Assembly (NCBI GenBank): GCA_964602785.1
Contig: CAZRSL010000006.1
Location: forward strand, 240-64,239
Reading direction: 5' to 3'
Length of the DNA stretch: 64,000 bases
Origin: an uncultured Prevotella sp.
GTDB lineage: Bacteria; Bacteroidota; Bacteroidia; Bacteroidales; Bacteroidaceae
Notes under the pieces: generated by a model
Database searches by the model: none
Told to the model about the DNA's origin: nothing
The model's input: the letters and a program-made list of their open reading frames with translations, nothing else
Program-made: the position numbers and the translations under genes
Shown: piece after piece, positions 8,517 to 42,246 of the stretch
Position numbering within the stretch: the first letter of the stretch is position 1
Layout: every line of letters begins with the position of its first letter

Positions 8517-9251
8517 CTATTTCTTTACGTTTTCCATGAAAGCACTTGGTATATATGCTGTGCATGCCGTCAGTAGTCCTTCAACGATTACAGCTACACG
8601 CTGTTGCCCTTTATAGCGTTTTACAATCCCAGTGACGCCTTTGAAATCGCCGTGGATGACTTTGACCAACTGGCCAGCTTTGAAATTGTGGATTTCATTT
8701 GTCGACAGGATTACATCTTTTGCTTCGGCATTGCATATTATGCGGAAGCTTTCCATCTGGTGGTCGGGCACAGTCAGTGGCTCTTTGATCTTAGTATGAC
8801 CAATGGTAACTGTGCGGTAGTAAAAACGAAGGAAAGGGAGGTTGATATTGTCGTAGACGTGTAGTTTGATTTCGTCCTCAGTGCCGTAGGCGAAGAAAAT
8901 GTTTGGGATGCGAGATTTCTCTATGGTCTTTTTCTTTCCGCCGACCATCTTCACGGTGGTCAGCGTGGGGTAGAATGCCGTGACATTCTTACTGCTCAAA
9001 TACTCGTATGCTTTCTTTTCTCGACCGTATGTCGTGCGCAAAGCATACCAGCGGCGGAATTTCTCAAGTCTTCTTTTGCCAGCAAAGGCCTCTGAACCCG
9101 GCGGGGCGTTTTCGGTGGACACCCCTGTTTGTGAGTTCTCGGCCAAAGGTGGCTTTCGAACTTCGGGGAGGGCATCGGGAATCGACCCAATGCGGGGAGA
9201 GGACTTGCCGCCTCCGTTGATGTCATCCATATTCTTGTTCGCAATATCCAT
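8517..9251 (-). CDS. upxY: UpxY-family (NusG paralog) transcription antiterminator
   Basis: NGN domain (WYALRTTYGREKKA...IPNIFF) and KOW domain (GQLVKVIHGDFKGVTG...GQQRVAV); ~65-aa N-terminal extension, start codon uncertain. Confidence 0.85.
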   Translation of the reverse strand: MDIANKNMDDINGGGKSSPRIGSIPDALPEVRKPPLAENSQTGVSTENAPPGSEAFAGKRRLEKFRRWYALRTTYGREKKAYEYLSSKNVTAFYPTLTTVKMVGGKKKTIEKSRIPNIFFAYGTEDEIKLHVYDNINLPFLRFYYRTVTIGHTKIKEPLTVPDHQMESFRIICNAEAKDVILSTNEIHNFKAGQLVKVIHGDFKGVTGIVKRYKGQQRVAVIVEGLLTACTAYIPSAFMENVKK

Positions 9252-9740
9252 ATCGATGACAAAACTGTTCTAAACAGAACCCGTTTTCGACAAAGAAAAG
9301 CGTGGTACCGTCCTGTTGTCCATTCTACCAACAGAGGCTCTTGCATTGCCCATCAAAGTTGAACAGACAACGTTAGAGCCCACGCCGATATGAATATAGC
9401 TTAACCGTAAAGAGACCCGTACACACACATCATACCCGCAAAAAGGTATAATTCCTGTTTACAAGGTCTCCACGGGAATGATATAATCACACCCCGGACA
9501 TCTACCGTTGCTTTGTTCAAGACTTTGATTTCGGAGGTTGCAAGATTCCTGTTGGTCTCAAACACAGCGGCGACAAACGCCTTTTTTATGTCTGGACTAT
9601 TTGCTTCCCACCCATGGCCCGCTTGGCATTGCTGGTTGTCGCGTGGCGACACCATCCTGCTCAGCCCGGCGTGGGCTGCCTCGCTGCCATGGTGGGAGAT
9701 CACGTCTCACCGTAATGTTGCAAGGCTGTATAGTCCACTT
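9252..9740 (-). ncRNA. Long structured 5' leader RNA, putative attenuator (copy 1, upstream of upxY)
   Basis: Homologous to 41217-41630 with covarying stems and a compensatory loop-loop pairing (see findings). Confidence 0.75.
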
Positions 9741-9741
9741 G

Positions 9742-9749
9742 CAAAGGTA
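9742..9749 (-). promoter_or_regulatory. Bacteroidota sigma-A -7 element TACCTTTG for the upxY operon
   Basis: Matches the TAnnTTTG consensus; lies just upstream of the structured leader. Confidence 0.6.
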
Positions 9750-9895
9750 CAAAGTTTTTTCGGTTATCTGCAAGCTTTTCCACATTTTTGCCGTTTTAAA
9801 AGTTGTTAACACCAATTACTCAAGCCATCAGCTACTGTAGACGACCGTGTTTTGCGGCATCCCCCAGCGGCATCAATATATGGAAATAACACAGA

Positions 9896-9976: not shown

Positions 9977-12900
9977 CTACCTGACGGTCTTCTCAGTGGT
10001 CTGAGTGCCGTCGGTGTAAGTCTTGCGGATGATAAGCACCTGACCGCGGCGCACCTGGCTTGGACTCACCTCCATACCGTCGACAGTGTAGTAGCGCCGG
10101 CTCTTCAGCTCCTTGCCGGTGGCGATGGAGCGGATGCCAGTGGCGTTGTCGGCGTTCAGGGTGAAGGTCTTGCTCCAGTTGCCGAGCTTGGCCGTAACGG
10201 TGAACAGACCGGTGAACGGCGTGTTGAACGCGGCCACATTGCCATTGAAGGTGATGCTTGCCGAGTCGGCAGTCCATGTCAGTCCGTCGGTCTGGCCCAC
10301 GTAGAAGGCCTTGGTGATGTGCTGCCACGAGTCGCCGTCAGCTGCCACAGGTATCACACCCGAGAAGCGGGCTGCGGCCGAGTCAGCGAAGATGGTGAGC
10401 ACAGGCAGACTGTAGTCGTCGTTGTGCTTGAACGCGCTTCCGAGGTCGAGCTTGGCCATTGCTGCAGCGTCGAGGCCAGTGGCCTGAGCGTCGTGGGCGT
10501 TGGCTGCGTTAAGGTCGCTGAGGAAGTAAGTGTTCTCCATCACGTTGTTCTCGTTCCAGTAGCGGCTGTAGGTGGAGCCGATGATGTTGCCACAGGTGTC
10601 GGCCTTCTGCTCGTCGCTGAGGCCGTCGGTGATGACCACCACCTTGCCAGCGTTGTAGCTGTTATGGAACTCGGTGGCGTTGCCAGTGGTGAGAGCCGTT
10701 ACACGATTTGGCTGGCCCACCAGTCCGCCCACATAGCTTGCGCCCGTAACGGTGCCGGTGTTGTAGCAGTTGTAGAAGTGGGCCGACGAGACGCCAGCCA
10801 GACCGCCGATGGCGTAGCCCGACGTGGTGCCGTTGGTGCCGCCCGCTGTGAGCGAGGTGGAGACGTTGCCGATGTTGAAGCAGTTCTCCACATTGCCCTT
10901 GCTGGTGCCGTAGCCGATGATGCCGCCGGCGCGGTTGGTCGATGTGGCTATGTCGCCGGTGTTGTAGCAGTTGCGGATCACGTTGGTGGTGTCACCAGTG
11001 AAACTGGCCACGATGCCGCCCAGTCCGAAGCCGCCGTCGATGCGTCCGGCATTGTAGCAGTTCTCAATGAGCATGTTCTTGCTCATAGAGTAGCAGACGA
11101 TGCCACCGCCCTGGTTGCCGTTGGCTGTAACGTCGCCCAGATTGTAGCAGTTGCTCACGATTGTGGCCACGCTGGCAGTACCTGATGCGTTCTTGCCTAT
11201 CAGACCGGCGGTGTAGACGTTCTTCTCCGACATGATGGTGCCGCTGTTCCAGCTGTTGGTGATCTTGGAGCCAACGCTGTAGAAGCTCATCAGACCGGCT
11301 GTGGGCGCATTGCTGGTGGACGCTGTGGCCGCCGCGATCATGTCGCCAGTGTTGTAGCAGCTGTCCATCTCAACAACGGTGGTGAAGCTGTTGCCAGCAG
11401 TGATCAGTCCGGCCACGTTGCCCTTTGCGGTGATTGTGGCGGTGTTGTAGCTCTTCTTGATGGAGAGCGTGCCAGCTCCACTGACGTTGGCGATGAGGCC
11501 GGCTGCGAAGGTGGTGTTGTTGGTCTTGGCCACCGAGATCTCGCCAGTGTTGAACACATTATTATATGTTGCAGGAGCCGACACGCAAGCGAAACCAGCA
11601 ATGTAGTTGGCAGTGCTGGTCTGGCTCACCTTGCCCTCGTTGCCGCAGGTATTGAACTGTGCGCCGCTGTAGACCTGTGCGGCGAAGCCAGCCAAGTATG
11701 CCTTCGACGACGACACGTCGGCGCGGTTGTAGCAGCTGTCGAACTCGGCTGTGCCGTAGGCGTGGGCCACAAATCCAGCCGCGTAGGTCTGGGTTGTGGT
11801 AACGGCTATCTGGTTGACGCAGTTCTTCACCCGACCATACACGTCGCCGGCGAATCCAGCCGCATAGGTGTGGGTGGCTGTCATCTTGCCCTCTAAGGTG
11901 AGGTCGTGCACGTAGCCAAACTCGCCGATCACCGAGAATGCGCCGCCGCCCTCAGCAGTGGCTATCGACTTGTTGGTGATGCCGGAGATGGTCATGCCGT
12001 TGCCGTCGAAGTCGCCGTTCATCGGGGTGATGAAGTCGCGGCCTATCTGCTTGAACGTCTCGCCGCTGAAGTCGATGTTGTTCTCCACACGCAGATACTG
12101 GCCCTTGAAGCTCTCGGCGCAGTCGACCATATAGTCGGACACGGCGTTCCAGTCCTGCGGAGTCTTGATGAGGAACGGCGATGCCTGGGTGCCGTCGCCC
12201 TCAAGCGGGAACGGATAACGCTGCTTGATGATCATCACCTTGGTGTAGTTAGGTGCGGCTGCCACGAGGGTGTCGACCTGCAGGCTGCTGACCGTTGCCG
12301 GAACCACAACCTTGCTGCCGTCGATCTTGAACGATGTGCCCTGGGTGAGCTGCCAAGTGGTGGCGGCTGGGGCTGAGAGCGCGATGTCGCTCTTCACGTC
12401 GAATGCCGTCTCGCCAGTGCCAATCTGCGGGATCACGCTTGCGGCATTCTTCACGATGGAATCGTTGGCAAACTGCTTCAGCACGGGGTACTTGCCCTGT
12501 TCAAACTGCCAGAGGCTGTCGGCCAGTCCGGCCAGTTTCTCTCCGCTGATGAGGGCCGATGTCTCCACGCCCGTTGCGGCGTTGATTTCGGTTGCGCCAC
12601 CAGAGGCGTAGGGAGCAATCTGCTTGTCGAAGTAGATGTTGGCGTTCTTGGCGCCATCCGATTCGTTGCTGCCAGTGATGCCACCGATGAGACCCTGGTC
12701 GAGGGTGATCACCGTGCCATAGCTGACCGAGCTGATGATGTCGCTCAGGCCCACGTCGGCGTAGGTGTCGGCGGGCTTGCTGATGTTGCCGGCTATGCCA
12801 CCCACCATTGAGGTGTAGGCGTAGACTGTGCCAGCGTTGACGCTGTTGCTGATGGTGCCAGCGCTCAGCGTGCCCACGATGCCACCAGAATAGCGCATGC

Positions 12901-15900
12901 GGCTGGCGTTGCGGGCCACCGATGTCTGGTTGAAGTAGGAGAGCTGCTCCACGGTAACGGCACCAGTGTTCATCGAGTTCTCGATGCGGCCACTGGAAGT
13001 GCCGGCAATGCCGCCGACGTCCATGTAGCCAGTGGCCACGTTGCCTGTGTTGAGGCAGTTGCGCACTGTGCCTTCCTTCTCCACACGGCCCACGATGCCG
13101 CCTATCCAGCAGCTCAGGCCTTTCACGTCGGCGTGGTTGACGCAGTTCTCCACGAGACCGTAGTTGTCGCCAACAAACGGTCCTGCCGTGGCCCAGAACT
13201 CAAGCTTGGCGTCGGCCGCGATGGTCAGGTTCTTCACCACGCCATTCAGGTCGAGGCGGCTGAAGAGACCGTTCCATCCCTTCGACCCGTCGGAGCCAGT
13301 AGATGGGGTGCCTGTGCCGTCGGCAAAACCGGTGGTGGGCTCGGTGGTCCACTTCACGTAGCCTCCGAGATAGAGGTTGTGCAGGGTATGGCCCGCGCCG
13401 TCGAACACACCGGCGAAGCGCGAGTAGGCGTCGTCAGGATTGTTGGCGAAGCCGATGAACGCAGTGTCGAGCTCCATGTCGATGTCGTTCATCACCTGGA
13501 AGTAGGTCTGCGGGAAGTAGAGGTTCTTGTTGGTGGTCAGGTCAGACAGATAAATCATGTCGGCCTTGGTCTTGATCTGGTAGGGGTTGGCCTCGGTGCC
13601 GGCTCCGTCGAGCGTTACCGGGGCGGCCTTGATGGCGTAGGAGAGCGAGTCGCGGCCGTTGACAACATAGAGCGTGTCGGTGCCGTAGCCGCCGTTGAGC
13701 ACGAGGTCGGTGCCGCTGATGCTCATGTAGTTGCCCTCGCTGCCGGCCGTTCCGCCCTTCACGAGCTTGAACTTGGTGTTGCTCAGGGCGTTCACCTTGG
13801 CAGTCTTGGCCATGTTCTCAAGTGAGTTGCCCTCGGCGAAGATGAGCGCGCTCGAAGCGTAAGCCCCTGCCTCGGTGCTCTCGGCAAACTTCAGGCGCGG
13901 ATAGTAGCCGCTTTGGAATGTCCAGACCGAAGTGTCATAGCCGTCGAGCACGGTGCCCGATGTCAGTGTGGCTGTGGGAGTGCTGAAGCGCACCGAGTTG
14001 TTGTTGGTGATCTGGTTGTCGAAGTAGATGCCGCTGAGTGTCGGGTTGGCGCCGTCGGCTATTGAGCCGAGAGCCTCGCGCACACCGTTCTTCGAGTCAT
14101 ACTGGTAGGTCTCGGCATCGACAAAGCCTGCCGAGAAGGCGTTGACGACGGAGCTCTCTATCGAGTCGTTGCCCACCTTGTTCTTGGCCACAAGGCCGGT
14201 GATGCCACCGCAGTTGACAGCGCTAACCGCCAGCACGGTGCTGGTGGAGTAGGCGTTGCTCAGTTTGGAGGCTGCCAGCAGACCAACCACGCCGCCCGCC
14301 TGGGTCTTGCTGTCGTAGCCACGCAGGTAGGCACGCGAGAACGCCTGGTCGATGGTGGAGTTGTAGGCAGTGCCCACCACGCCGCCAATGCGCTGGTTGG
14401 ACGAACTGGTGTAGACGGTGCCGGTGAAGTAGCACTTCTCCGCGCTTGCGCTGTAGAGGTTGCCCACCACGCCGCCTACGGGGTTGTAGTCGCCGCCACC
14501 CTCAGTGATGCTGACACCAGTGGCGAAGCAGTTGCTGATGGAGCCGTCGACCTCGCCAGCCACACCGCCCACGTAGCCGTAGGAGCCGGTGATGGTGCTG
14601 TTGACAACGTCGGAGTTGCTGATGGTGGAGCCAGTGCCGATGATGCCGCCTGTGGCCATGCCGCTTGCGGTGACCTTGGCGTTGACGACGTGGATGTTGT
14701 CCATCGTTCCGCTTTCCCATCCAGCCAGCACGCCGGTGAAGCTGCCGGAGTTGTTGATGGTCGGGCTGTCAAACGTCAGATCCTTGATGGTTGTGAGCGA
14801 GTCGACGCGGCCAAAGAGGCCGGCATAACCCACAGTGGACGACACGTTGAGGTTCTTCAGCGTGTGGCCGCCACCGTCCAGGTTGCCCGAGAACAGATAC
14901 GTGTAGCCGTTGCCGATGGGCGTGAAGCGGTAGTTCTCCATGTCGATGTCGTTCATCACCTTGAACCACTTGCCCTTGTAGGCGCGGTGGATGACGTAGG
15001 CGCCGATGGTGTCGGTGGCTTCCCATGCCTTGGCGTTGTCGGAGAGGAGGATCAGGTCGTCGAGCTGCTTGATCTGATACGGGTCGGCCTCGGTGCCGCT
15101 GCCCTCAAAGCTCGACACTGAGAGTGCCGGATAGGTGAATGTGGCATCCTGGTCGTTGTACTCAAGATAGCCCGAAAGCCTGTAGCCGGCGTAGGCGCTT
15201 GAGGCCAAGAGCGACCAGGCACCCCACGAGATGCGCTTGTTGCCAGTGGCCTTGGCGCAGGTGATGGTGCTCGTGAAGTTGGACGACATGGCCGTGGTGT
15301 CGGGGTTTACCACGCCCACGGTCTGGAAGTTGCCGTAGCTTGAGGCGTACATGGCCACCTGCGACGCTATCGTGGCGGTGGAGTCGCGCTGCAGCTCTAT
15401 CTCCACGGTGTGGCCTTGTCCGGCGAAGTTCTTCACCTGCACCACATTCGACGAAATCTGGTTGATTGCCACGTTGTAGCCGTAGGTTTGGGCTGTGGTG
15501 CTGTCACTTGGAATCGCCGTGTAGATGAGGCGGCCGTTGGCCACGTCGAGCTTGGTGTCCGACCAGGCCTGATAGACGGCGTCCTTGCTCGAGCCGTCGG
15601 CCACGAAGAAGCCCCAGTAGTCGTCAATCTGGAGCGAGCCATCGGCGTTGATGGTGCCGCTGACAGCCTTGTCGCGGTCGATCACAGCCTTGCCACCAGT
15701 GATTGTGAAGTAGCAGACATCGACGTTCCACTTGTTGGTGGTGTCGACGGCCACAATCTGGTTGGGGATGTAGAACTTGCCCGCGGCTGCGTCGACGGCG
15801 GCTTTAACCACGTAGCCGGAGCCGCCGAAACCCGTCAGGGTTACGGTGTCGGCATCCTGGGCTGCGACGACGACCGAGTGGCCGCCCTCGAAGCTGCCTG

Positions 15901-16225
15901 TGAGCGAGCTGGAGGTCCAGACGTAGGTGCCGGCAAGGTCGCTTGCCGTGCTCACCCGCTTTGGCGCACGGCGCATTGTGGTGGCCGCCTTGCCCTGTTT
16001 GGGCTTGGGCTGCTCCTTCAACGTGCCGGTGTAGAGGCTCAGCTGCTCTTGCGGAGTGGCCAGTTGCAGGGCTTGGGCTGCCGGCTGCGAACTGACGCGC
16101 TGGGTTGCCTCCTGCGGTTCAGCCAACAGCTTGGCCGAACTGACCACCGTCTGCTGTGCCTGTAATCCAGCGGGAACGCCGAGCAGAATGGCAAGCAGGG
16201 CAATAAGAAATGTAGCTTTTCTCAT
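9977..16225 (-). CDS. Large (~2080 aa) GLUG/beta-helix repeat surface protein, probable T9SS cargo
   Basis: True start MRKATFLIALL (16225); the ORF-track extension runs through a REP doublet. Three GxGTxxxPYxI modules, many VGGIxG repeats, CTD-like TGIRSI...YYTVDG...TEKTVR. Confidence 0.85.
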   Translation of the reverse strand: MRKATFLIALLAILLGVPAGLQAQQTVVSSAKLLAEPQEATQRVSSQPAAQALQLATPQEQLSLYTGTLKEQPKPKQGKAATTMRRAPKRVSTASDLAGTYVWTSSSLTGSFEGGHSVVVAAQDADTVTLTGFGGSGYVVKAAVDAAAGKFYIPNQIVAVDTTNKWNVDVCYFTITGGKAVIDRDKAVSGTINADGSLQIDDYWGFFVADGSSKDAVYQAWSDTKLDVANGRLIYTAIPSDSTTAQTYGYNVAINQISSNVVQVKNFAGQGHTVEIELQRDSTATIASQVAMYASSYGNFQTVGVVNPDTTAMSSNFTSTITCAKATGNKRISWGAWSLLASSAYAGYRLSGYLEYNDQDATFTYPALSVSSFEGSGTEADPYQIKQLDDLILLSDNAKAWEATDTIGAYVIHRAYKGKWFKVMNDIDMENYRFTPIGNGYTYLFSGNLDGGGHTLKNLNVSSTVGYAGLFGRVDSLTTIKDLTFDSPTINNSGSFTGVLAGWESGTMDNIHVVNAKVTASGMATGGIIGTGSTISNSDVVNSTITGSYGYVGGVAGEVDGSISNCFATGVSITEGGGDYNPVGGVVGNLYSASAEKCYFTGTVYTSSSNQRIGGVVGTAYNSTIDQAFSRAYLRGYDSKTQAGGVVGLLAASKLSNAYSTSTVLAVSAVNCGGITGLVAKNKVGNDSIESSVVNAFSAGFVDAETYQYDSKNGVREALGSIADGANPTLSGIYFDNQITNNNSVRFSTPTATLTSGTVLDGYDTSVWTFQSGYYPRLKFAESTEAGAYASSALIFAEGNSLENMAKTAKVNALSNTKFKLVKGGTAGSEGNYMSISGTDLVLNGGYGTDTLYVVNGRDSLSYAIKAAPVTLDGAGTEANPYQIKTKADMIYLSDLTTNKNLYFPQTYFQVMNDIDMELDTAFIGFANNPDDAYSRFAGVFDGAGHTLHNLYLGGYVKWTTEPTTGFADGTGTPSTGSDGSKGWNGLFSRLDLNGVVKNLTIAADAKLEFWATAGPFVGDNYGLVENCVNHADVKGLSCWIGGIVGRVEKEGTVRNCLNTGNVATGYMDVGGIAGTSSGRIENSMNTGAVTVEQLSYFNQTSVARNASRMRYSGGIVGTLSAGTISNSVNAGTVYAYTSMVGGIAGNISKPADTYADVGLSDIISSVSYGTVITLDQGLIGGITGSNESDGAKNANIYFDKQIAPYASGGATEINAATGVETSALISGEKLAGLADSLWQFEQGKYPVLKQFANDSIVKNAASVIPQIGTGETAFDVKSDIALSAPAATTWQLTQGTSFKIDGSKVVVPATVSSLQVDTLVAAAPNYTKVMIIKQRYPFPLEGDGTQASPFLIKTPQDWNAVSDYMVDCAESFKGQYLRVENNIDFSGETFKQIGRDFITPMNGDFDGNGMTISGITNKSIATAEGGGAFSVIGEFGYVHDLTLEGKMTATHTYAAGFAGDVYGRVKNCVNQIAVTTTQTYAAGFVAHAYGTAEFDSCYNRADVSSSKAYLAGFAAQVYSGAQFNTCGNEGKVSQTSTANYIAGFACVSAPATYNNVFNTGEISVAKTNNTTFAAGLIANVSGAGTLSIKKSYNTATITAKGNVAGLITAGNSFTTVVEMDSCYNTGDMIAAATASTSNAPTAGLMSFYSVGSKITNSWNSGTIMSEKNVYTAGLIGKNASGTASVATIVSNCYNLGDVTANGNQGGGIVCYSMSKNMLIENCYNAGRIDGGFGLGGIVASFTGDTTNVIRNCYNTGDIATSTNRAGGIIGYGTSKGNVENCFNIGNVSTSLTAGGTNGTTSGYAIGGLAGVSSAHFYNCYNTGTVTGASYVGGLVGQPNRVTALTTGNATEFHNSYNAGKVVVITDGLSDEQKADTCGNIIGSTYSRYWNENNVMENTYFLSDLNAANAHDAQATGLDAAAMAKLDLGSAFKHNDDYSLPVLTIFADSAAARFSGVIPVAADGDSWQHITKAFYVGQTDGLTWTADSASITFNGNVAAFNTPFTGLFTVTAKLGNWSKTFTLNADNATGIRSIATGKELKSRRYYTVDGMEVSPSQVRRGQVLIIRKTYTDGTQTTEKTVR

Positions 16226-16358
16226 TTTGGTGTTGTTGATTGGTTGAGGACAATGTGTGCTATAGGTTGTTCCTTGGGCGCAAGCGGGCTTCGCTGTCCT
16301 CATATAGACGATGCCCGATGCGTTTGGGGAGGTTGAAATCAAGGGTTGTATATATGAC

Positions 16359-16431
16359 GTAGGGGCGTGATTTATCATGCCCGAAACTCTGGTCGTTTGC
16401 CTATCGCGGGCATGATAAATCATGCCCCTGC
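16359..16431. repeat. GTAG-type REP doublet (REPIN-like)
   Basis: GTAGGGGCGTGATTTATCATGCCC...GGGCATGATAAATCATGCCCCTGC; inverted near-copy at 59119-59191. Confidence 0.75.
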
Positions 16432-16476
16432 GGTTTGGCTTGTGCTTGCTGCCTGAGTTTTGCATAAATCATCAGT

Positions 16477-18723
16477 TTATTGATTCACCACTTTGGCAGC
16501 CCGCAAGCCTTGCCTCAGCACGTAGACACTCTGCGGCAGACTGTGGAGCGTGGCCTCGCGGCTCTGCCCTGTGGCGACGAGGCGGCCTTGCATGTCGTAG
16601 ATCCTCACCGTGCTGTCAATGGCGTTGGTGGCGGCTATGTCGCGGATGGCGGTGGGTGTCTGCTCGTAGGTGATGGCGAAGTTGTCGAGATAGACGGTGT
16701 CGGTGGTCGAGCCGGTGCGCTCGGTAATGGCGAAGCCGATGCCCGACGTGCCGTTGAGGCGGAACTGCATGGTGGTGCGCTTGCCCGCCTCAACCATTAT
16801 GTTGCGCGTGCCGCTGAAGTCGCTCAGCATGGTGCGCGTGCCGTTCTGGTTGACACTGTGCACATTGAACACCACCGTCTGGCTGGTCGGGTTCACCACG
16901 TCGATGCTCATAGTCTGCATGTTCTGGTTGATCACGCCCGATTCGAGCACAGCCTGGCGCACCATGGCCACGCCCTTGTGGTCGCTCACCAGCCCAGTGT
17001 GCAGACTGTCGGGGCTGACGATGCGCGCGCCTGTCAGGCTCCACGTGCAGAAGCGGCCCGCCACGCCGGTGGTGTCGGCAGTGGTCAGTGGCATGGTCTC
17101 GAAGTCCTCAATGGCCGACGGCGTGTCCTCCACTGTTGTGCTGAAGGTTATCACGCCGTTCTCCTCCTTGATGTTGCTCAGCGAGATGCCAGTGAGCATA
17201 CCCGTCCACGAGCGCAGGTTGGGCGTGGTGTTGTTGCCCAGCTCTGTGATGCCAGTGGAGCCAGGCAGCGGGTCGGAGTCGCTGTCGATGGGCGACGTGC
17301 CGCTGATGCGCGGGTTGACGCGCAGCAGTTCGTAGTAGTTGTGGGATGGGTTGCAGTTGATGTCGTTGCTTGTCCACACGCTGGTGTCGGTGGAGTCGAC
17401 GCGGAAGACGAGCATACCGTGGCCGGGCAGATAGGCGTTCCACTTGCCTTGCTGCCGGTTCTCCAAGAGGAAGAACTCCTTGTCGACGGCGGTGTTGATG
17501 CGGTAGCCGGTGTTCACCTCGTCGATGTCGTCGAGAGTGTAGTCGCCGGCCTCGGTGATGAGTTGCGGGGTGGCGAATCCGGCCTGGTATCGCTCGAAGA
17601 GGGAGTAGCCGCAGGGCGTGCGCGAGCTGTTGAGGTAGGGGCCGCTGGCCATCACCGACCACTTGCCCGGGTGTATGCTCTGGCCGCCGCTGCCCGAATA
17701 GTCGGTGTCGTACTCATCGCAGAGGCCCAGCACGTGGCTGAACTCGTGGCATATAGTGCCTATGCCGTCGAGCAGCTTGTTGCTCGGCGCGCCGAAGAGT
17801 TCGGTTGAGCAGGCGTAGCGTCCGAAGCGCACGCCATCGAGCGAGAGTGTGGTGAGGTAGGAGGCGTGGGGCCAAAGCAGGCGGCTGTCGTTGCTGCCGA
17901 AGTTGGATCCTCCGCCGGCGAAAATGAAGTACACCATGTCGACCACGCCGTTGCCGTCGGTGTCGTAGTTCTTGTAGTCGACGAGCGAGTCGGCTACGAT
18001 GAGGGCGGCACGCTGCAGTCCGGGATAGTTGTTACGGCCCTCATACATGCTGTGGTCGATTTTCACCGGGCCGACCACGTCGAAATGTGGGTCGAAGAGA
18101 CCCGCCGAGTTGTCGTAGAAATAGTCGCGCACGCTGCCGGTGTAGCTGATGTGCTCTGGCAGGGCGGCGTTGGTCATGTAGCCGCTGAAGCCGCGCTCGT
18201 TGATCATGCTGTCCACAATCTCAGCGTAGTCGTCGCGCGAGAAGTCGCAGTCGTTGTACTCCACGAGCACCACCAGTCCGCGGAACTTGCTGTACTCGAA
18301 GAATGGGGCCGCCCCTTGCCTGCTACTGATGCGCAGGGCATCCTCGGCGGCCTTGGCTTTACGGATGGGGGGGGTAAGATTTGGCCGCAGCATCTTCGGC
18401 GTTGTGCCGCGGAACTGCAGTTCCTCTGTCGTGCGGGCCTTGGCGTCGTGTGCCTCGATGCTGGTGGCCACAAGCTGGCCGTCCTGCAGCTGCGCATAGA
18501 CGTAGCAACCTTGGTCGTTACGCACCACAGAATAGCCGTCGGCGGTGGTCGTGAAGCTCATCCACTCGTCGCCGCAGAGGCGCAGCTCCACGGTGGTGCC
18601 GTCGGGCTGGGTGGCGGTGAAGGTGCCGGGATAGGCCGGGATGGCCTTTGCCGCACCCGTGGTAAACACTGCCGCAGTGGCTATGAGTGTGAGCTTGACG
18701 AGATAGGTGTATAATCTGTTCAT
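16477..18723 (-). CDS. M6 (immune inhibitor A-like) metalloprotease, T9SS cargo
   Basis: N-terminal QPDGT...GDE pro-region, HEFSHVLGLCD zincin motif, WSVMASG, EFFLLENRQ, CTD IYDMQGRLV. Confidence 0.9.
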   Translation of the reverse strand: MNRLYTYLVKLTLIATAAVFTTGAAKAIPAYPGTFTATQPDGTTVELRLCGDEWMSFTTTADGYSVVRNDQGCYVYAQLQDGQLVATSIEAHDAKARTTEELQFRGTTPKMLRPNLTPPIRKAKAAEDALRISSRQGAAPFFEYSKFRGLVVLVEYNDCDFSRDDYAEIVDSMINERGFSGYMTNAALPEHISYTGSVRDYFYDNSAGLFDPHFDVVGPVKIDHSMYEGRNNYPGLQRAALIVADSLVDYKNYDTDGNGVVDMVYFIFAGGGSNFGSNDSRLLWPHASYLTTLSLDGVRFGRYACSTELFGAPSNKLLDGIGTICHEFSHVLGLCDEYDTDYSGSGGQSIHPGKWSVMASGPYLNSSRTPCGYSLFERYQAGFATPQLITEAGDYTLDDIDEVNTGYRINTAVDKEFFLLENRQQGKWNAYLPGHGMLVFRVDSTDTSVWTSNDINCNPSHNYYELLRVNPRISGTSPIDSDSDPLPGSTGITELGNNTTPNLRSWTGMLTGISLSNIKEENGVITFSTTVEDTPSAIEDFETMPLTTADTTGVAGRFCTWSLTGARIVSPDSLHTGLVSDHKGVAMVRQAVLESGVINQNMQTMSIDVVNPTSQTVVFNVHSVNQNGTRTMLSDFSGTRNIMVEAGKRTTMQFRLNGTSGIGFAITERTGSTTDTVYLDNFAITYEQTPTAIRDIAATNAIDSTVRIYDMQGRLVATGQSREATLHSLPQSVYVLRQGLRAAKVVNQ

Positions 18724-39264: not shown

Positions 39265-39340
39265 ATCTAAATCGATTATTAGTCTACTTTACTATAGTAG
39301 ACTCCCACTGCAGGGACCGTGCCTTGTGCCTGCCCTAATA

Positions 39341-39787
39341 AATGTTCGACCGCTTTAAATAAATAGGTAATGACATTGTTTTAGGGCCGGCCCTAACCCT
39401 ACCTACACGGCCCCTGCAGTGGGATTATGCTATTACAAAAATCCCAAATTGGTCATTAGGAAGTGTTAGTCAGAAAATGATGCCGGAGACATCAACGCTC
39501 GATAACCGCGGGTGCTTGCACCCTCGGTAAATGGATTATCTATTCTCCGACCCTATCGGGGTCGCCGCACTTGCACATCTTTACAACTCACTGACAAAGA
39601 AGGGCGACCCCGATAGGGTCGATTGTTTGGAGAGCCTGTGATTCCGTGGGTGCAAGCACCCGCGGTTATCGAACGGTGATGCCTCCGGCATCATCTACTA
39701 TTATAAGAAGGGCATCATCTACGGTTATAAGATGATGAAAAAATGGTGTTGTGTTGCTGCCGTAAACGCAATACCATTTTGCTATAA
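39341..39787. repeat. 447-bp direct repeat, copy 1 (REP-like palindromes plus terminator hairpin)
   Basis: Co-linear with 41800-42246 at a constant offset of 2459; about a dozen substitutions by eye. Confidence 0.93.
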
Positions 39788-41216: not shown

Positions 41217-41630
41217 TATACAATTGGTTTTTCGTTATCAATTGAAAGATTATCAACGATATTATACGAAAAAGGCGTAGGAGTCCGTATCGTTACTCGT
41301 CCTACAGCAGGAGGCTCTAGCATTGCCCATCGTGGTTGAACGAGCAACGCAGAAGCCCACGCCCGTATGTAAGTCCGCCTTTTAACCTTGACATGATTAA
41401 AAAAGTGGATATATACATACCCATGAGCATCTATCGTTGCTTTATACTTGACCACGATTGAAACTGCTAGATTTCCTGCTGTCAAGAACAAAGCGTCGGA
41501 TAAACGCCTTATCATATATGTGTGTCCCATTACAAGTATACTCCCAAAAGAGCAACCTTTCCCAACCTCTTGTGGACTTCCATTATCGCTAACGGCAAGT
41601 CTAAAGGTTTCGTGCATGGTTCACGGTTGC
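41217..41630 (-). ncRNA. Long structured 5' leader RNA, putative attenuator (copy 2, upstream of cotH)
   Basis: Homologous to the upxY leader; preceded by a TAGATTTG -7 element at 41630-41637 (minus strand). Confidence 0.75.
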
Positions 41631-41799
41631 AAATCTACAAAGAATATTTGATTTAATTCAACTTTTTGGCAAAAAAATGAATATGTTTTTATCAGCACTT
41701 ATCGCATATATTGTGATTTTCACTGATAGCACTTGTCTGACCATTACTATTCTTATGGCTTTTCCTTTGCAGTGGCTGTTCCCTGTGGCGGCCATCATT

Positions 41800-42246
41800 A
41801 ATGTTCGACCGCTTTAAATAAATAGGTAACGACATTGTTTTAGGGCCGGCCCTAACCCTACCTACACGACCCCTACAGTGGGATTATGCTATTACAATAA
41901 TCCCAAAATGGTCATTAGGAAGTGTTAGTTAGAAAATGATGTCGGAGACATCACCGCTCGATAACCGACGGTGCTTGCACCCTCGGTAAATGGATCATCT
42001 ATTCTCCGACCCTATCGGGGTCGCCGCACTTGCACATCTTTACAACTCACTGACAAAGAAGGGCGACCCCGATAGGGTCGATTGTTTGGAGAGCCTGTGA
42101 TTCCGTGGGTGCAAGCACCCGCGGTTATCGAACGGTGATGCCTCCGGCATCATCTACTATTATAAGAAGGGCATCATCTACGGTTATAAGATGATGAAAA
42201 AATGGTATTGTGTTGCTGCCGTAAACACAATACCATTTTGCTATAA
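41800..42246. repeat. 447-bp direct repeat, copy 2
   Basis: Near-identical to 39341-39787. Confidence 0.93.

Follow-up and report, generated by a model that had tools for sequence, protein, structure and literature searches.

Two genes in a stretch of 64,000 nucleotides (nt) of DNA from an uncultured Prevotella sp. (GenBank assembly GCA_964602785.1, contig CAZRSL010000006.1, positions 240 to 64,239 of the forward strand; hereafter the window), one coding for a UpxY-like NusG paralog and the other for a CotH-family protein, are each preceded on the minus strand by a structured leader RNA, and the two leaders are homologous. They belong to a large and apparently undescribed family of folded leader RNAs of ~250–300 nt that is widespread in gut Bacteroidales, and the comparisons below show this family to be real and strongly constrained. 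Each member is built of two hairpins, A and B, whose tops are complementary to one another through three long-range helices, and ends in a GC-rich helix followed by a U-tract. On balance, we think it probable that the leader is a cis-acting transcription attenuator operating at this closing helix and U-tract to decide read-through into the gene behind it.

Two homologous leaders in the window

The stretches 5′ of the two genes, whose start codons lie at 9251 (upxY-like) and 41216 (cotH), have two conserved blocks in common, and in both the parts follow one another in the same order: a promoter of the TAnnTTTG type, a variable 5′ domain, hairpin A, a variable insert (hairpin V) that differs in length and sequence in every copy, hairpin B, a U-tract and then a gene on the same strand (Table 1). 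The stem of hairpin A is 13/14 paired and that of hairpin B 11/11 paired, in the upxY and cotH leaders alike. Against a covariance model built from the genome's own copies, the upxY and cotH leaders reach scores of 168 and 194 bits (E 1e-46 and 6e-54), a likeness far beyond chance. An earlier, sequence-only reading of the window had proposed a homologous structured RNA at these two loci, and its coordinates and counts for both leaders were all reproduced by script and by direct reading of the sequence. The range it assigned to the upxY leader, 9252-9590, did locate the element but left out the promoter box at 9742-9749 and the 150-nt 5′ domain.

A multicopy family in Bacteroidales

The leaders are not limited to upxY and cotH. 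Searches of the source assembly (2.92 Mb in 149 contigs, ~80% complete) with blastn and nhmmer recovered 19 copies, 17 of them full-length and 2 cut by contig ends, which head very mixed genes. All keep one order of parts (TAnnTTTG box, 5′ domain, block A, insert, block B, U-tract), and they are 64-81% identical to one another, differing by compensatory changes. With a covariance model of 258 positions made from the 17 full copies (R1), the RNA was found in 17 of the 24 genomes of the genus; of the genomes sampled across the taxonomic family, 102 of 150, from 29 of 35 genera, carry it, usually with 1-13 copies each. Strong matches also appeared in ~12 of the ~148 other families of the order Bacteroidales, for which one genome per family was sampled. 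An exact-pattern scan of species genomes returned at least 119 stretches; among the 80 matches listed are Prevotella spp., Paraprevotella clara, P. xylaniphila, Leyella stercorea, Xylanibacter rarus and Prevotella ihumii, as well as Bacteroides bouchesdurhonensis, Parabacteroides, Muribaculaceae/Duncaniella and Paludibacteraceae.

The sequence-only reading had left open whether the RNA was already an Rfam family. A scan of the whole window against Rfam 15 found only a tRNA above gathering thresholds, and the two leaders, compared with Rfam at E values up to 10, gave only chance-level matches (among them a microRNA model and Parabacteroides-1, whose 18 bits compare with a threshold of 93), so that neither leader matches an Rfam family. 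No description of the RNA was found in the literature on UpxY leaders, FopS small RNAs (sRNAs), Bacteroidales RNA motifs, the Segatella copri transcriptome or the human-microbiome RNA catalogue, although one may still exist. The sub-threshold Parabacteroides-1 match (E 0.75) lies at 9714-9786 on the minus strand, over the promoter region of the upxY leader, and is most likely due to chance.

Six copies of the source genome (L017, L018, L019, L020, L022 and L025, on contigs C1, C34, C104, C18, C22 and C7) form a subfamily in which GRAACGTC stands instead of GGTAGATG and in which the 5′ domain is conserved (it contains AAGACATCGATGGAATTGAG). The copies on C1, C34, C18, C22 and C104 also carry, after the U-tract, a box CGCTGARTCTGGGAGTTTRTAGGCA, not seen in C7, that is complementary to the 3′ arm of the terminator and its left flank; to judge from this complementarity, the box could refold read-through transcripts. 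A further observation from the family alignment (A3, see below) concerns the two hairpins themselves, which resemble each other: both begin with GGCGU, their 5′ stems read GC(U/G)UUG... and their 3′ stems contain GCAAC. Such similarity suggests that hairpins A and B may be diverged duplicates and that the family began with an internal duplication.

Two hairpins joined by three long-range helices

Alignment A3 holds 101 members, the 98 best-scoring of which were used for the consensus fold and the pairing counts. In the consensus fold, hairpin A has a base formed by GGCGUUUAC with GUAGAUGCC, a 14-bp stem, an open internal loop and a small apical hairpin, and hairpin B a base formed by GGCGUGGG with CCCACGCC, an 11-bp stem, an internal loop and a small apical hairpin. 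Across the helices of the model 98% of the cells are paired and 17 of the 27 pairs are changed on both sides, values that none of 500 shuffles reached. The folding z-score is approximately -8. G-U pairs outnumber A-C mismatches by 121:1, 192:2 and 240:14, and selection therefore acts on the RNA of the minus strand, the one that carries the leaders.

The tops of the two hairpins are complementary through the helices K:K′, X:X′ and Y:Y′. The kissing loop that had been proposed from the two window leaders proved real: K:K′ is paired in 100% of cells as compared with 86% after row permutation and occurs in 15 variants, its variable base being the N of a CUNG loop of the YUNR type. One version of the K loop, TCTCGCA, is present in 39 of the 98 members. 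Helices X:X′ and Y:Y′ are different in sequence in nearly every copy, yet keep their complementarity. For Y:Y′, pairing is 95.6% against 60.7% in permuted rows and 31-42% when the partners are slid, with 4-5 pair types per column and mutual information of 1.2-1.5 bits, and X:X′ comprises 90 distinct sequences among the 98 copies. Alignment-free duplex energies, which compare cognate with non-cognate partners, lead to the same picture (X, -11.0 vs -4.3 kcal/mol; Y, -7.8 vs -1.6; K, -11.2 vs -7.0), and X and Y combined are orthogonal among the copies of the source genome (-18.7 for cognate and -5.3 for non-cognate pairs). The same three helices are present in other families and in named species.

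The local stems are copy-specific as well, with cognate and non-cognate energies of -8.6 vs -6.1 for P-A1 and -15.1 vs -11.9 for P-B2, and P-A2, a short stem closing the K loop, is conserved in 94 of 98 copies in many pair types, with exchanges of G-C to C-G and of A-U to U-A. The two hairpins and the three helices between them are thus both maintained by evolution. Drawn together, the supported pairings would form a four-way junction of stem A, Y:Y′, stem B and X:X′, whose far ends the loop-loop helix would connect.

Position of the leaders and the genes behind them

A TAnnTTTG promoter box precedes 92 of the 101 members, mostly 60-80 nt before the start of the model, and at least 7 T are found within the 12 nt after the last helix in 97 of 101. 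At 68 of 93 loci an open reading frame (ORF) of at least 100 aa on the same strand starts 30-130 nt after the U-tract (median 71 nt), as compared with 1 of 23 in the antisense control. The orientation and spacing are thus fixed, not random as would be expected of a miniature inverted-repeat element or an sRNA, and they support the proposal of a dispersed RNA with a role in cis. A second promoter box occurs in only 1 of 100 spacers between leader and gene, which makes the genes dependent on the promoter of the leader. The spacer up to the start codon is 63% A+T.

In the source genome, the genes behind leaders code for UpxY with a capsule operon, CotH, GT1, GT2 with YfhO, GtrA with GT2 and acyltransferase_3, and further for BspA-type leucine-rich repeat (LRR) proteins, TerB proteins, a Ser/Thr kinase, large secreted proteins and small lipoproteins. 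Among the 93 first genes surveyed across relatives are nine of LRR_5 (BspA-type LRR), four each of DUF4595 and NusG-like proteins, three of GT2 and two of MBOAT, together with TerB, kinase and methylase genes and many lipoproteins of no family; many first genes lack a Pfam family yet encode a signal peptide. The genes are mixed and lean to the cell surface. The term "riboswitch-like" used in the sequence-only reading finds no support in this context, as the first genes share no pathway or substrate that would point to a ligand.

These data bear on two alternatives that assign the leader no role in cis. In the first, the terminated leader is itself the product, a stable RNA of ~300 nt existing in 19 paralogous forms and acting in trans, and the gene is expressed by leak-through. 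An own promoter, a U-tract end and a K loop common to 39 copies would suit such an RNA, and Bacteroides does have families of paralogous sRNAs, e.g. FopS (PMC11697453). The tight, oriented spacing of 70 nt and the lack of a second promoter speak instead for action in cis; each of K, X and Y is taken up by a partner in its own molecule; and the orthogonality of X and Y (-18.7 vs -5.3) counts further against the idea and led us to reject trans cross-talk among the copies of the source genome. We regard this explanation as very improbable. The second alternative holds that the copies are repeats at the DNA level, miniature mobile elements or palindromes with an outward promoter and no RNA function. 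It can draw on a multicopy, dispersed and long-palindromic element, and on the position of the cotH unit between 300-nt direct repeats, but is disfavoured to the point of being scarcely credible by the sequence divergence of the copies with its compensatory changes, the strand-specific excess of G-U over A-C (121:1 and 192:2), the fixed gene orientation and spacing and the retention of the family across 29 of 35 genera. A miniature inverted-repeat element in particular was rejected, the copies being not near-identical and fixed in orientation, with frequent strand-specific G-U.

The terminator-like end and its competitors

The closing helix of hairpin B is GC-rich (GGCGTGGG with CCCACGCC) and lies immediately 5′ of the U-tract, as in an intrinsic terminator. 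Its conservation, with 97.8% pairing over 8 pairs, 6 of them changed on both sides, and a T-rich end in 97 of 101 members, agrees with what had been noted for the two window leaders. The 3′ arm, YCCACGCC, has several possible partners. It can pair with the distal arm GGCGUGGG to close hairpin B; with a local arm GUGGR (GTGGR in DNA) located just after Y′; or, in the long-hairpin fold described below, with the AAGGCGU that opens block A. Covariation links column 384 of the 3′ arm to the local arm (58 G-C and 25 A-U); with the distal arm this column forms mostly G-U. The distal arm is in turn alternatively pairable with CCCAUGG after block A, and in 33% of 92 leaders, as compared with 2.6% of shuffles, a box in the 5′ domain offers it at least 10 contiguous bp. 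In the upxY leader this box, GCCCACGCCGG, pairs over 11 bp with the distal arm, better than the arm's own 3′ partner does. The antiterminator put forward in the sequence-only reading is neither supported nor contradicted by these data: its core, GCAACG/CGUUGC, is pairable in 96% of cells but so nearly invariant that covariation is mute, and the extensions TAGA/TCTR and GYYC/GGGC pair in only 59-70%.

A different view of the leader comes from folding energies. The minimum-energy fold of 93 of the 98 members is one long hairpin in which the A half pairs with the B half, extending to a pairing of AAAGGCGT with ACGCTTTT; on average it reaches -109 kcal/mol, as compared with -94 for hairpins A, V and B folded apart. 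This gap of 15 kcal/mol and the A+T-rich spacer could be taken to indicate a post-transcriptional role, in which a ~100-bp imperfect hairpin at the 5′ end of the mRNA serves as an RNase III site, a stability element or a translation gate for the A/U-rich start region. Yet the pairs found only in the long hairpin are weak and lack copy-specific complementarity, which resides instead in the local stems; the consensus fold is local; and the conserved U-tract would go unexplained. A post-transcriptional role thus has a very poor chance of being correct, and the long hairpin is rejected as a sufficient account of the leader, given where the copy-specific complementarity lies.

By analogy with attenuators, the zipper-type attenuator of pLS20 among them, we infer that transcription terminates at the closing helix and U-tract and that read-through is controlled in cis. 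Each leader is transcribed from its own TAnnTTTG promoter, and the closing helix with the U-tract would work as an intrinsic terminator at which RNA polymerase halts, unless the terminator arms are engaged elsewhere or the polymerase has been made terminator-resistant. Hairpin A would dock on the nascent hairpin B, first through the kiss and next through X and Y, and so determine the resulting fold. The terminator arms have as candidate competitors the 5′-domain box, the second local 5′ arm GTGGR and the thermodynamically favoured long hairpin. A more elaborate version, offered tentatively and in our judgement unlikely, sees the leader as a self-contained sense/antisense pair in which a U-turn loop kiss and two locus-private address helices lead to a fold with a four-way junction, and this fold sets the terminator. 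Thanks to the private addresses, ~20 leaders expressed together would not mispair with one another, and through the shared core (GCAAC, GGGCAAUGC and GGCGUGGG) a single global signal or protein could gate a whole regulon of variable surface genes in Prevotella-type gut bacteria.

Several observations weigh against attenuation. A terminator scan that accepts loops of 3-8 nt detects nothing at the two leaders, as the loops here exceed its rule: the helix before the U-tract encloses ~110 nt (with the local arm, a loop of 18-22 nt), and a branched terminator of this kind would be unusual. No antiterminator pairing is both family-wide and supported by covariation, and the 5′-domain box is confined to a third of the copies and absent from the cotH leader. 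The pairs private to the long hairpin (a:b′ and a′:b) amount to only -4.8 and -3.5 kcal/mol, with no copy-specific complementarity. Steric conflict may keep the supported helices from all being present at once, and the gene set behind the leaders is so varied that it points to no ligand.

UpxY and other elongation factors

One leader heads an upxY-like gene, and UpxY had been suggested to override the leaders. The assembly holds just two NusG-family genes, NusG itself and the UpxY-like gene. Close UpxY orthologs (at least 48% identity) occur in 13 of the 150 genomes of the family, and in the three checkable cases (genomes G063, G094 and G174) the ortholog lies directly behind a leader. The first genes behind leaders are NusG-like in 4 of 93 cases and something else in 89, and with the present query no UpxY-like match at E 1e-10 was found in the nearly complete genomes G047, G052, G064 and G065, each with 5-9 leaders. 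Since genomes with so many leaders gave no such match, the leader family is independent of UpxY. A general overriding role of UpxY fails on the many genomes that have leaders without a UpxY-like match, and its candidacy as the dedicated factor of the family is likewise rejected as a general rule; at most, UpxY action would be confined to its own locus. Next to the upxY-like start codon, at 9256-9280 on the minus strand, lies a small hairpin, GTTCTGTTTAGAAC, followed by AGTTTTG, which recurs as GTTCTGTCTAGAAG at the ortholog of another genus (L100). From its sequence and place, it may be a second pause site or an ops-like site specific to upxY.

Another explanation is that the leader is a constitutive terminator coupled to factor-dependent processive antitermination: it would stop unmodified polymerase and load an elongation factor (UpxY or a different NusG paralog, or some other protein), so that the modified polymerase passes the leader and later terminators in long surface-structure operons. 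Regulons of RfaH and UpxY comprise capsule, glycosylation and large surface-protein genes, a set that the genes behind the present leaders resemble. The two alternative 5′ arms for one 3′ arm are reminiscent of a fail-safe terminator, the source genome has one UpxY-like gene and 19 leaders, and the NusG-like first genes and the orthologs behind leaders in three genomes fit as well. Hairpin A and the GCAACGGTAGAT that follows it, with the next G, would be a hairpin-stabilized pause and recruitment site as in Bacteroides fragilis opsX. In both window leaders the stem of hairpin A ends 11 nt before the T of GATG, which agrees with the opsX pause geometry, where hairpins reach -12 to -9 (PMC11685472); this spacing, read from the sequence, is only a lead, and one subfamily has GRAACGTC in place of GGTAGATG. 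Also contrary to this explanation, the four genomes with 5-9 leaders gave no UpxY-like match and no other factor was identified, and opsX is a ~40-bp, single-locus-specific element situated 9-42 nt from upxY (PMC11685472), as opposed to 250 nt here. We judge factor-dependent antitermination unlikely.

The folded leader might instead modify its own polymerase, as a processive antitermination RNA acting in cis, like put from phage HK022 or EAR from the eps operons of Bacillus, with the U-tract as a checkpoint for correct folds. In favour of this are the size, compactness and strong constraint of the RNA and the lack of a co-occurring dedicated protein; moreover, leaders head capsule and glycosylation operons and, in the source genome, very long genes (1141-1178 aa). 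Nothing in its sequence or in Rfam resembles put or EAR, and many leaders head single short genes (70-250 aa) with no need of processive antitermination; we consider such a mechanism decidedly unlikely.

Features and surroundings of the window leaders

Table 1. Coordinates of the two leaders and their genes in the window
Feature	Coordinates	Strand	Details
Shared motif AAGGCGTTT	9575-9583 and 41502-41510	-	
Shared motif GGCGTGGGCT	9377-9386 and 41354-41363	-	
Shared motif GATGGGCAATGC	9343-9354 and 41320-41331	-	
upxY leader, promoter -7 box	9742-9749	-	TACCTTTG; Bacteroidetes TAnnTTTG type, read from the sequence
upxY leader, variable 5′ domain	9584-9737	-	
upxY leader, 5′-domain box	9666-9676	-	GCCCACGCCGG; 11-bp complement of distal terminator arm
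upxY leader, P0 / hairpin A	9510-9583	-	AAGGCGTTT 9575-9583; stem arms 9555-9568, 9510-9523
upxY leader, hairpin A, upper parts	9522-9554	-	Y 9550-9554; loop K TCTTGCA 9539-9545; X 9522-9529
upxY leader, conserved joining stretch	9499-9509	-	AACGGTAGATG (after GC: GCAACGGTAGATG); consensus-fold partner GGCGTTTAC
upxY leader, variable insert (hairpin V)	9387-9498	-	between the conserved blocks
upxY leader, hairpin B and terminator-like end	9292-9386	-	distal arm GGCGTGGGC 9378-9386
upxY leader, hairpin B, parts	9315-9371	-	stem arms 9361-9371, 9315-9325; X′ 9352-9359; loop K′ TGCAAGA 9339-9345; Y′ 9329-9333
upxY leader, end	9292-9307	-	3′ arm TACCACGC 9300-9307; U-tract 9292-9299
upxY leader, helix Y:Y′	9550-9554 with 9329-9333	-	CAACA with TGTTG
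upxY leader, helix X:X′	9522-9529 with 9352-9359	-	ATCAAAGT with ACTTTGAT
UpxY-like NusG paralog, 244 aa	8517-9251	-	first gene 3′ of its leader; Pfam NusG, E 6.7e-10
cotH leader, promoter -7 box	41630-41637	-	TAGATTTG
cotH leader, P0 / hairpin A and joining stretch	41428-41510	-	arms 41481-41494, 41439-41452; AAGGCGTTT 41502-41510
cotH leader, hairpin A, upper parts	41451-41480	-	Y 41476-41480; K TCTAGCA 41465-41471; X 41451-41458
cotH leader, joining stretch	41428-41438	-	AACGATAGATG
cotH leader, hairpin B and terminator-like end	41269-41363	-	distal arm 41355-41363; arms 41338-41348, 41292-41302
cotH leader, hairpin B, upper parts	41306-41336	-	X′ 41329-41336; K′ TGCTAGA 41316-41322; Y′ 41306-41310
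cotH leader, end	41269-41282	-	3′ arm TCCTACGCC 41274-41282; U-tract 41269-41273
cotH leader, helix Y:Y′	41476-41480 with 41306-41310	-	AGCAG with CTGCT
cotH leader, helix X:X′	41451-41458 with 41329-41336	-	ATCGTGGT with ACCACGAT
CotH-family gene, 474 aa	39792-41216	-	signal peptide; 51 nt 3′ of leader; Pfam CotH, E 6.4e-22

A 300-nt direct repeat (39309-39608 and 41768-42067, 93% identical, spacing 2459 nt) brackets the unit of promoter, leader and cotH, as if this were an inserted or excisable cassette. Within the repeated segment, 5′ of the cotH leader promoter, are nested palindromes (41930-42159 and 42199-42239), in which arms of 57 nt with 86% complementarity enclose perfect arms of 19 nt, and a perfect 16-nt hairpin. 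Directly 5′ of the upxY leader, also on the minus strand, are ORFs of 2162 aa (9977-16465) and 748 aa (16477-18723). An invertible promoter was rejected for both leaders, as neither promoter has flanking inverted repeats.

Significance

Prevotella, Paraprevotella and their relatives are dominant bacteria of the gut and rumen whose gene regulation is poorly known. If the leaders do control read-through, one RNA design would govern ~5-20 loci per genome that encode capsule, glycan-modifying enzymes, BspA-type surface proteins and lipoproteins, all targets of host immunity and phages, and the family would rank among the larger cis-regulatory RNA classes found in bacteria. The architecture, with three copy-specific long-range helices between two hairpins, is unusual; hundreds of natural variants are at hand for structure work, and cultured carriers such as Paraprevotella clara YIT 11840, P. 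xylaniphila YIT 11841, Xylanibacter rarus, Leyella stercorea and Bacteroides bouchesdurhonensis make direct testing possible.

Comparison with known systems

The put and EAR RNAs are, like the present leaders, structured cis RNAs heading operons for exopolysaccharides or surface structures. The likeness does not extend to sequence or fold, and the present RNA ends in a terminator-like element of its own and often heads single short genes. In the CopA-CopT and RNAI-RNAII systems, an antisense RNA and its target form a kissing complex that progresses to a four-way junction. The leaders share with these systems a recognition loop of the YUNR type (CUNG), a 7-bp loop-loop helix and flanking helices that would join the two hairpins around a four-way junction, a presumed arrangement in three dimensions. 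They differ in that both partners belong to one transcript and in that the segments beside the loop are open internal loops and not upper stems in need of melting.

Leaders that switch between terminator and antiterminator, such as attenuators and the riboswitch and T-box platforms, are closer in general plan. They too lie between promoter and gene, have a GC-rich helix followed by a U-tract and contain boxes with alternative pairings, and T-boxes likewise exist in many copies per genome. Here, no ligand- or tRNA-linked gene set, no Rfam match and no universal antiterminator were found, and the helix before the U-tract closes a whole domain of 110 nt and not a small hairpin.

The UpxY/opsX leaders of capsule loci (PMC11685472) come from the same bacterial order and precede the same kind of gene, one of the present copies heading an upxY-like gene, and the end of a leader hairpin ~11 nt before a T-G step is a possible further likeness. 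The RNA described here is 250-300 nt long, mostly heads genes other than upxY (89/93) and occurs in genomes without a UpxY-like match; with only 4/93 first genes NusG-like and such genomes carrying 5-9 leaders, the family does not group with UpxY/opsX leaders of the B. fragilis type.

Finally, the zipper-type attenuator of pLS20 belongs to plasmids of Gram-positive bacteria, precedes conAn1 and has a simple local hairpin as its terminator (PMC13401043). In the leader family the pairs formed only by zipping are without covariation support and both halves are stable hairpins in themselves, and no homology between the two is claimed. The parallel lies in the layout: in both, a weak small hairpin (here P0) is followed by a long imperfect stem-loop and then by a terminator or terminator-like element, and an arm of the upstream hairpin is complementary to the terminator region, through which the long stem zips further in pLS20 (PMC13401043) and may do so in the leaders.

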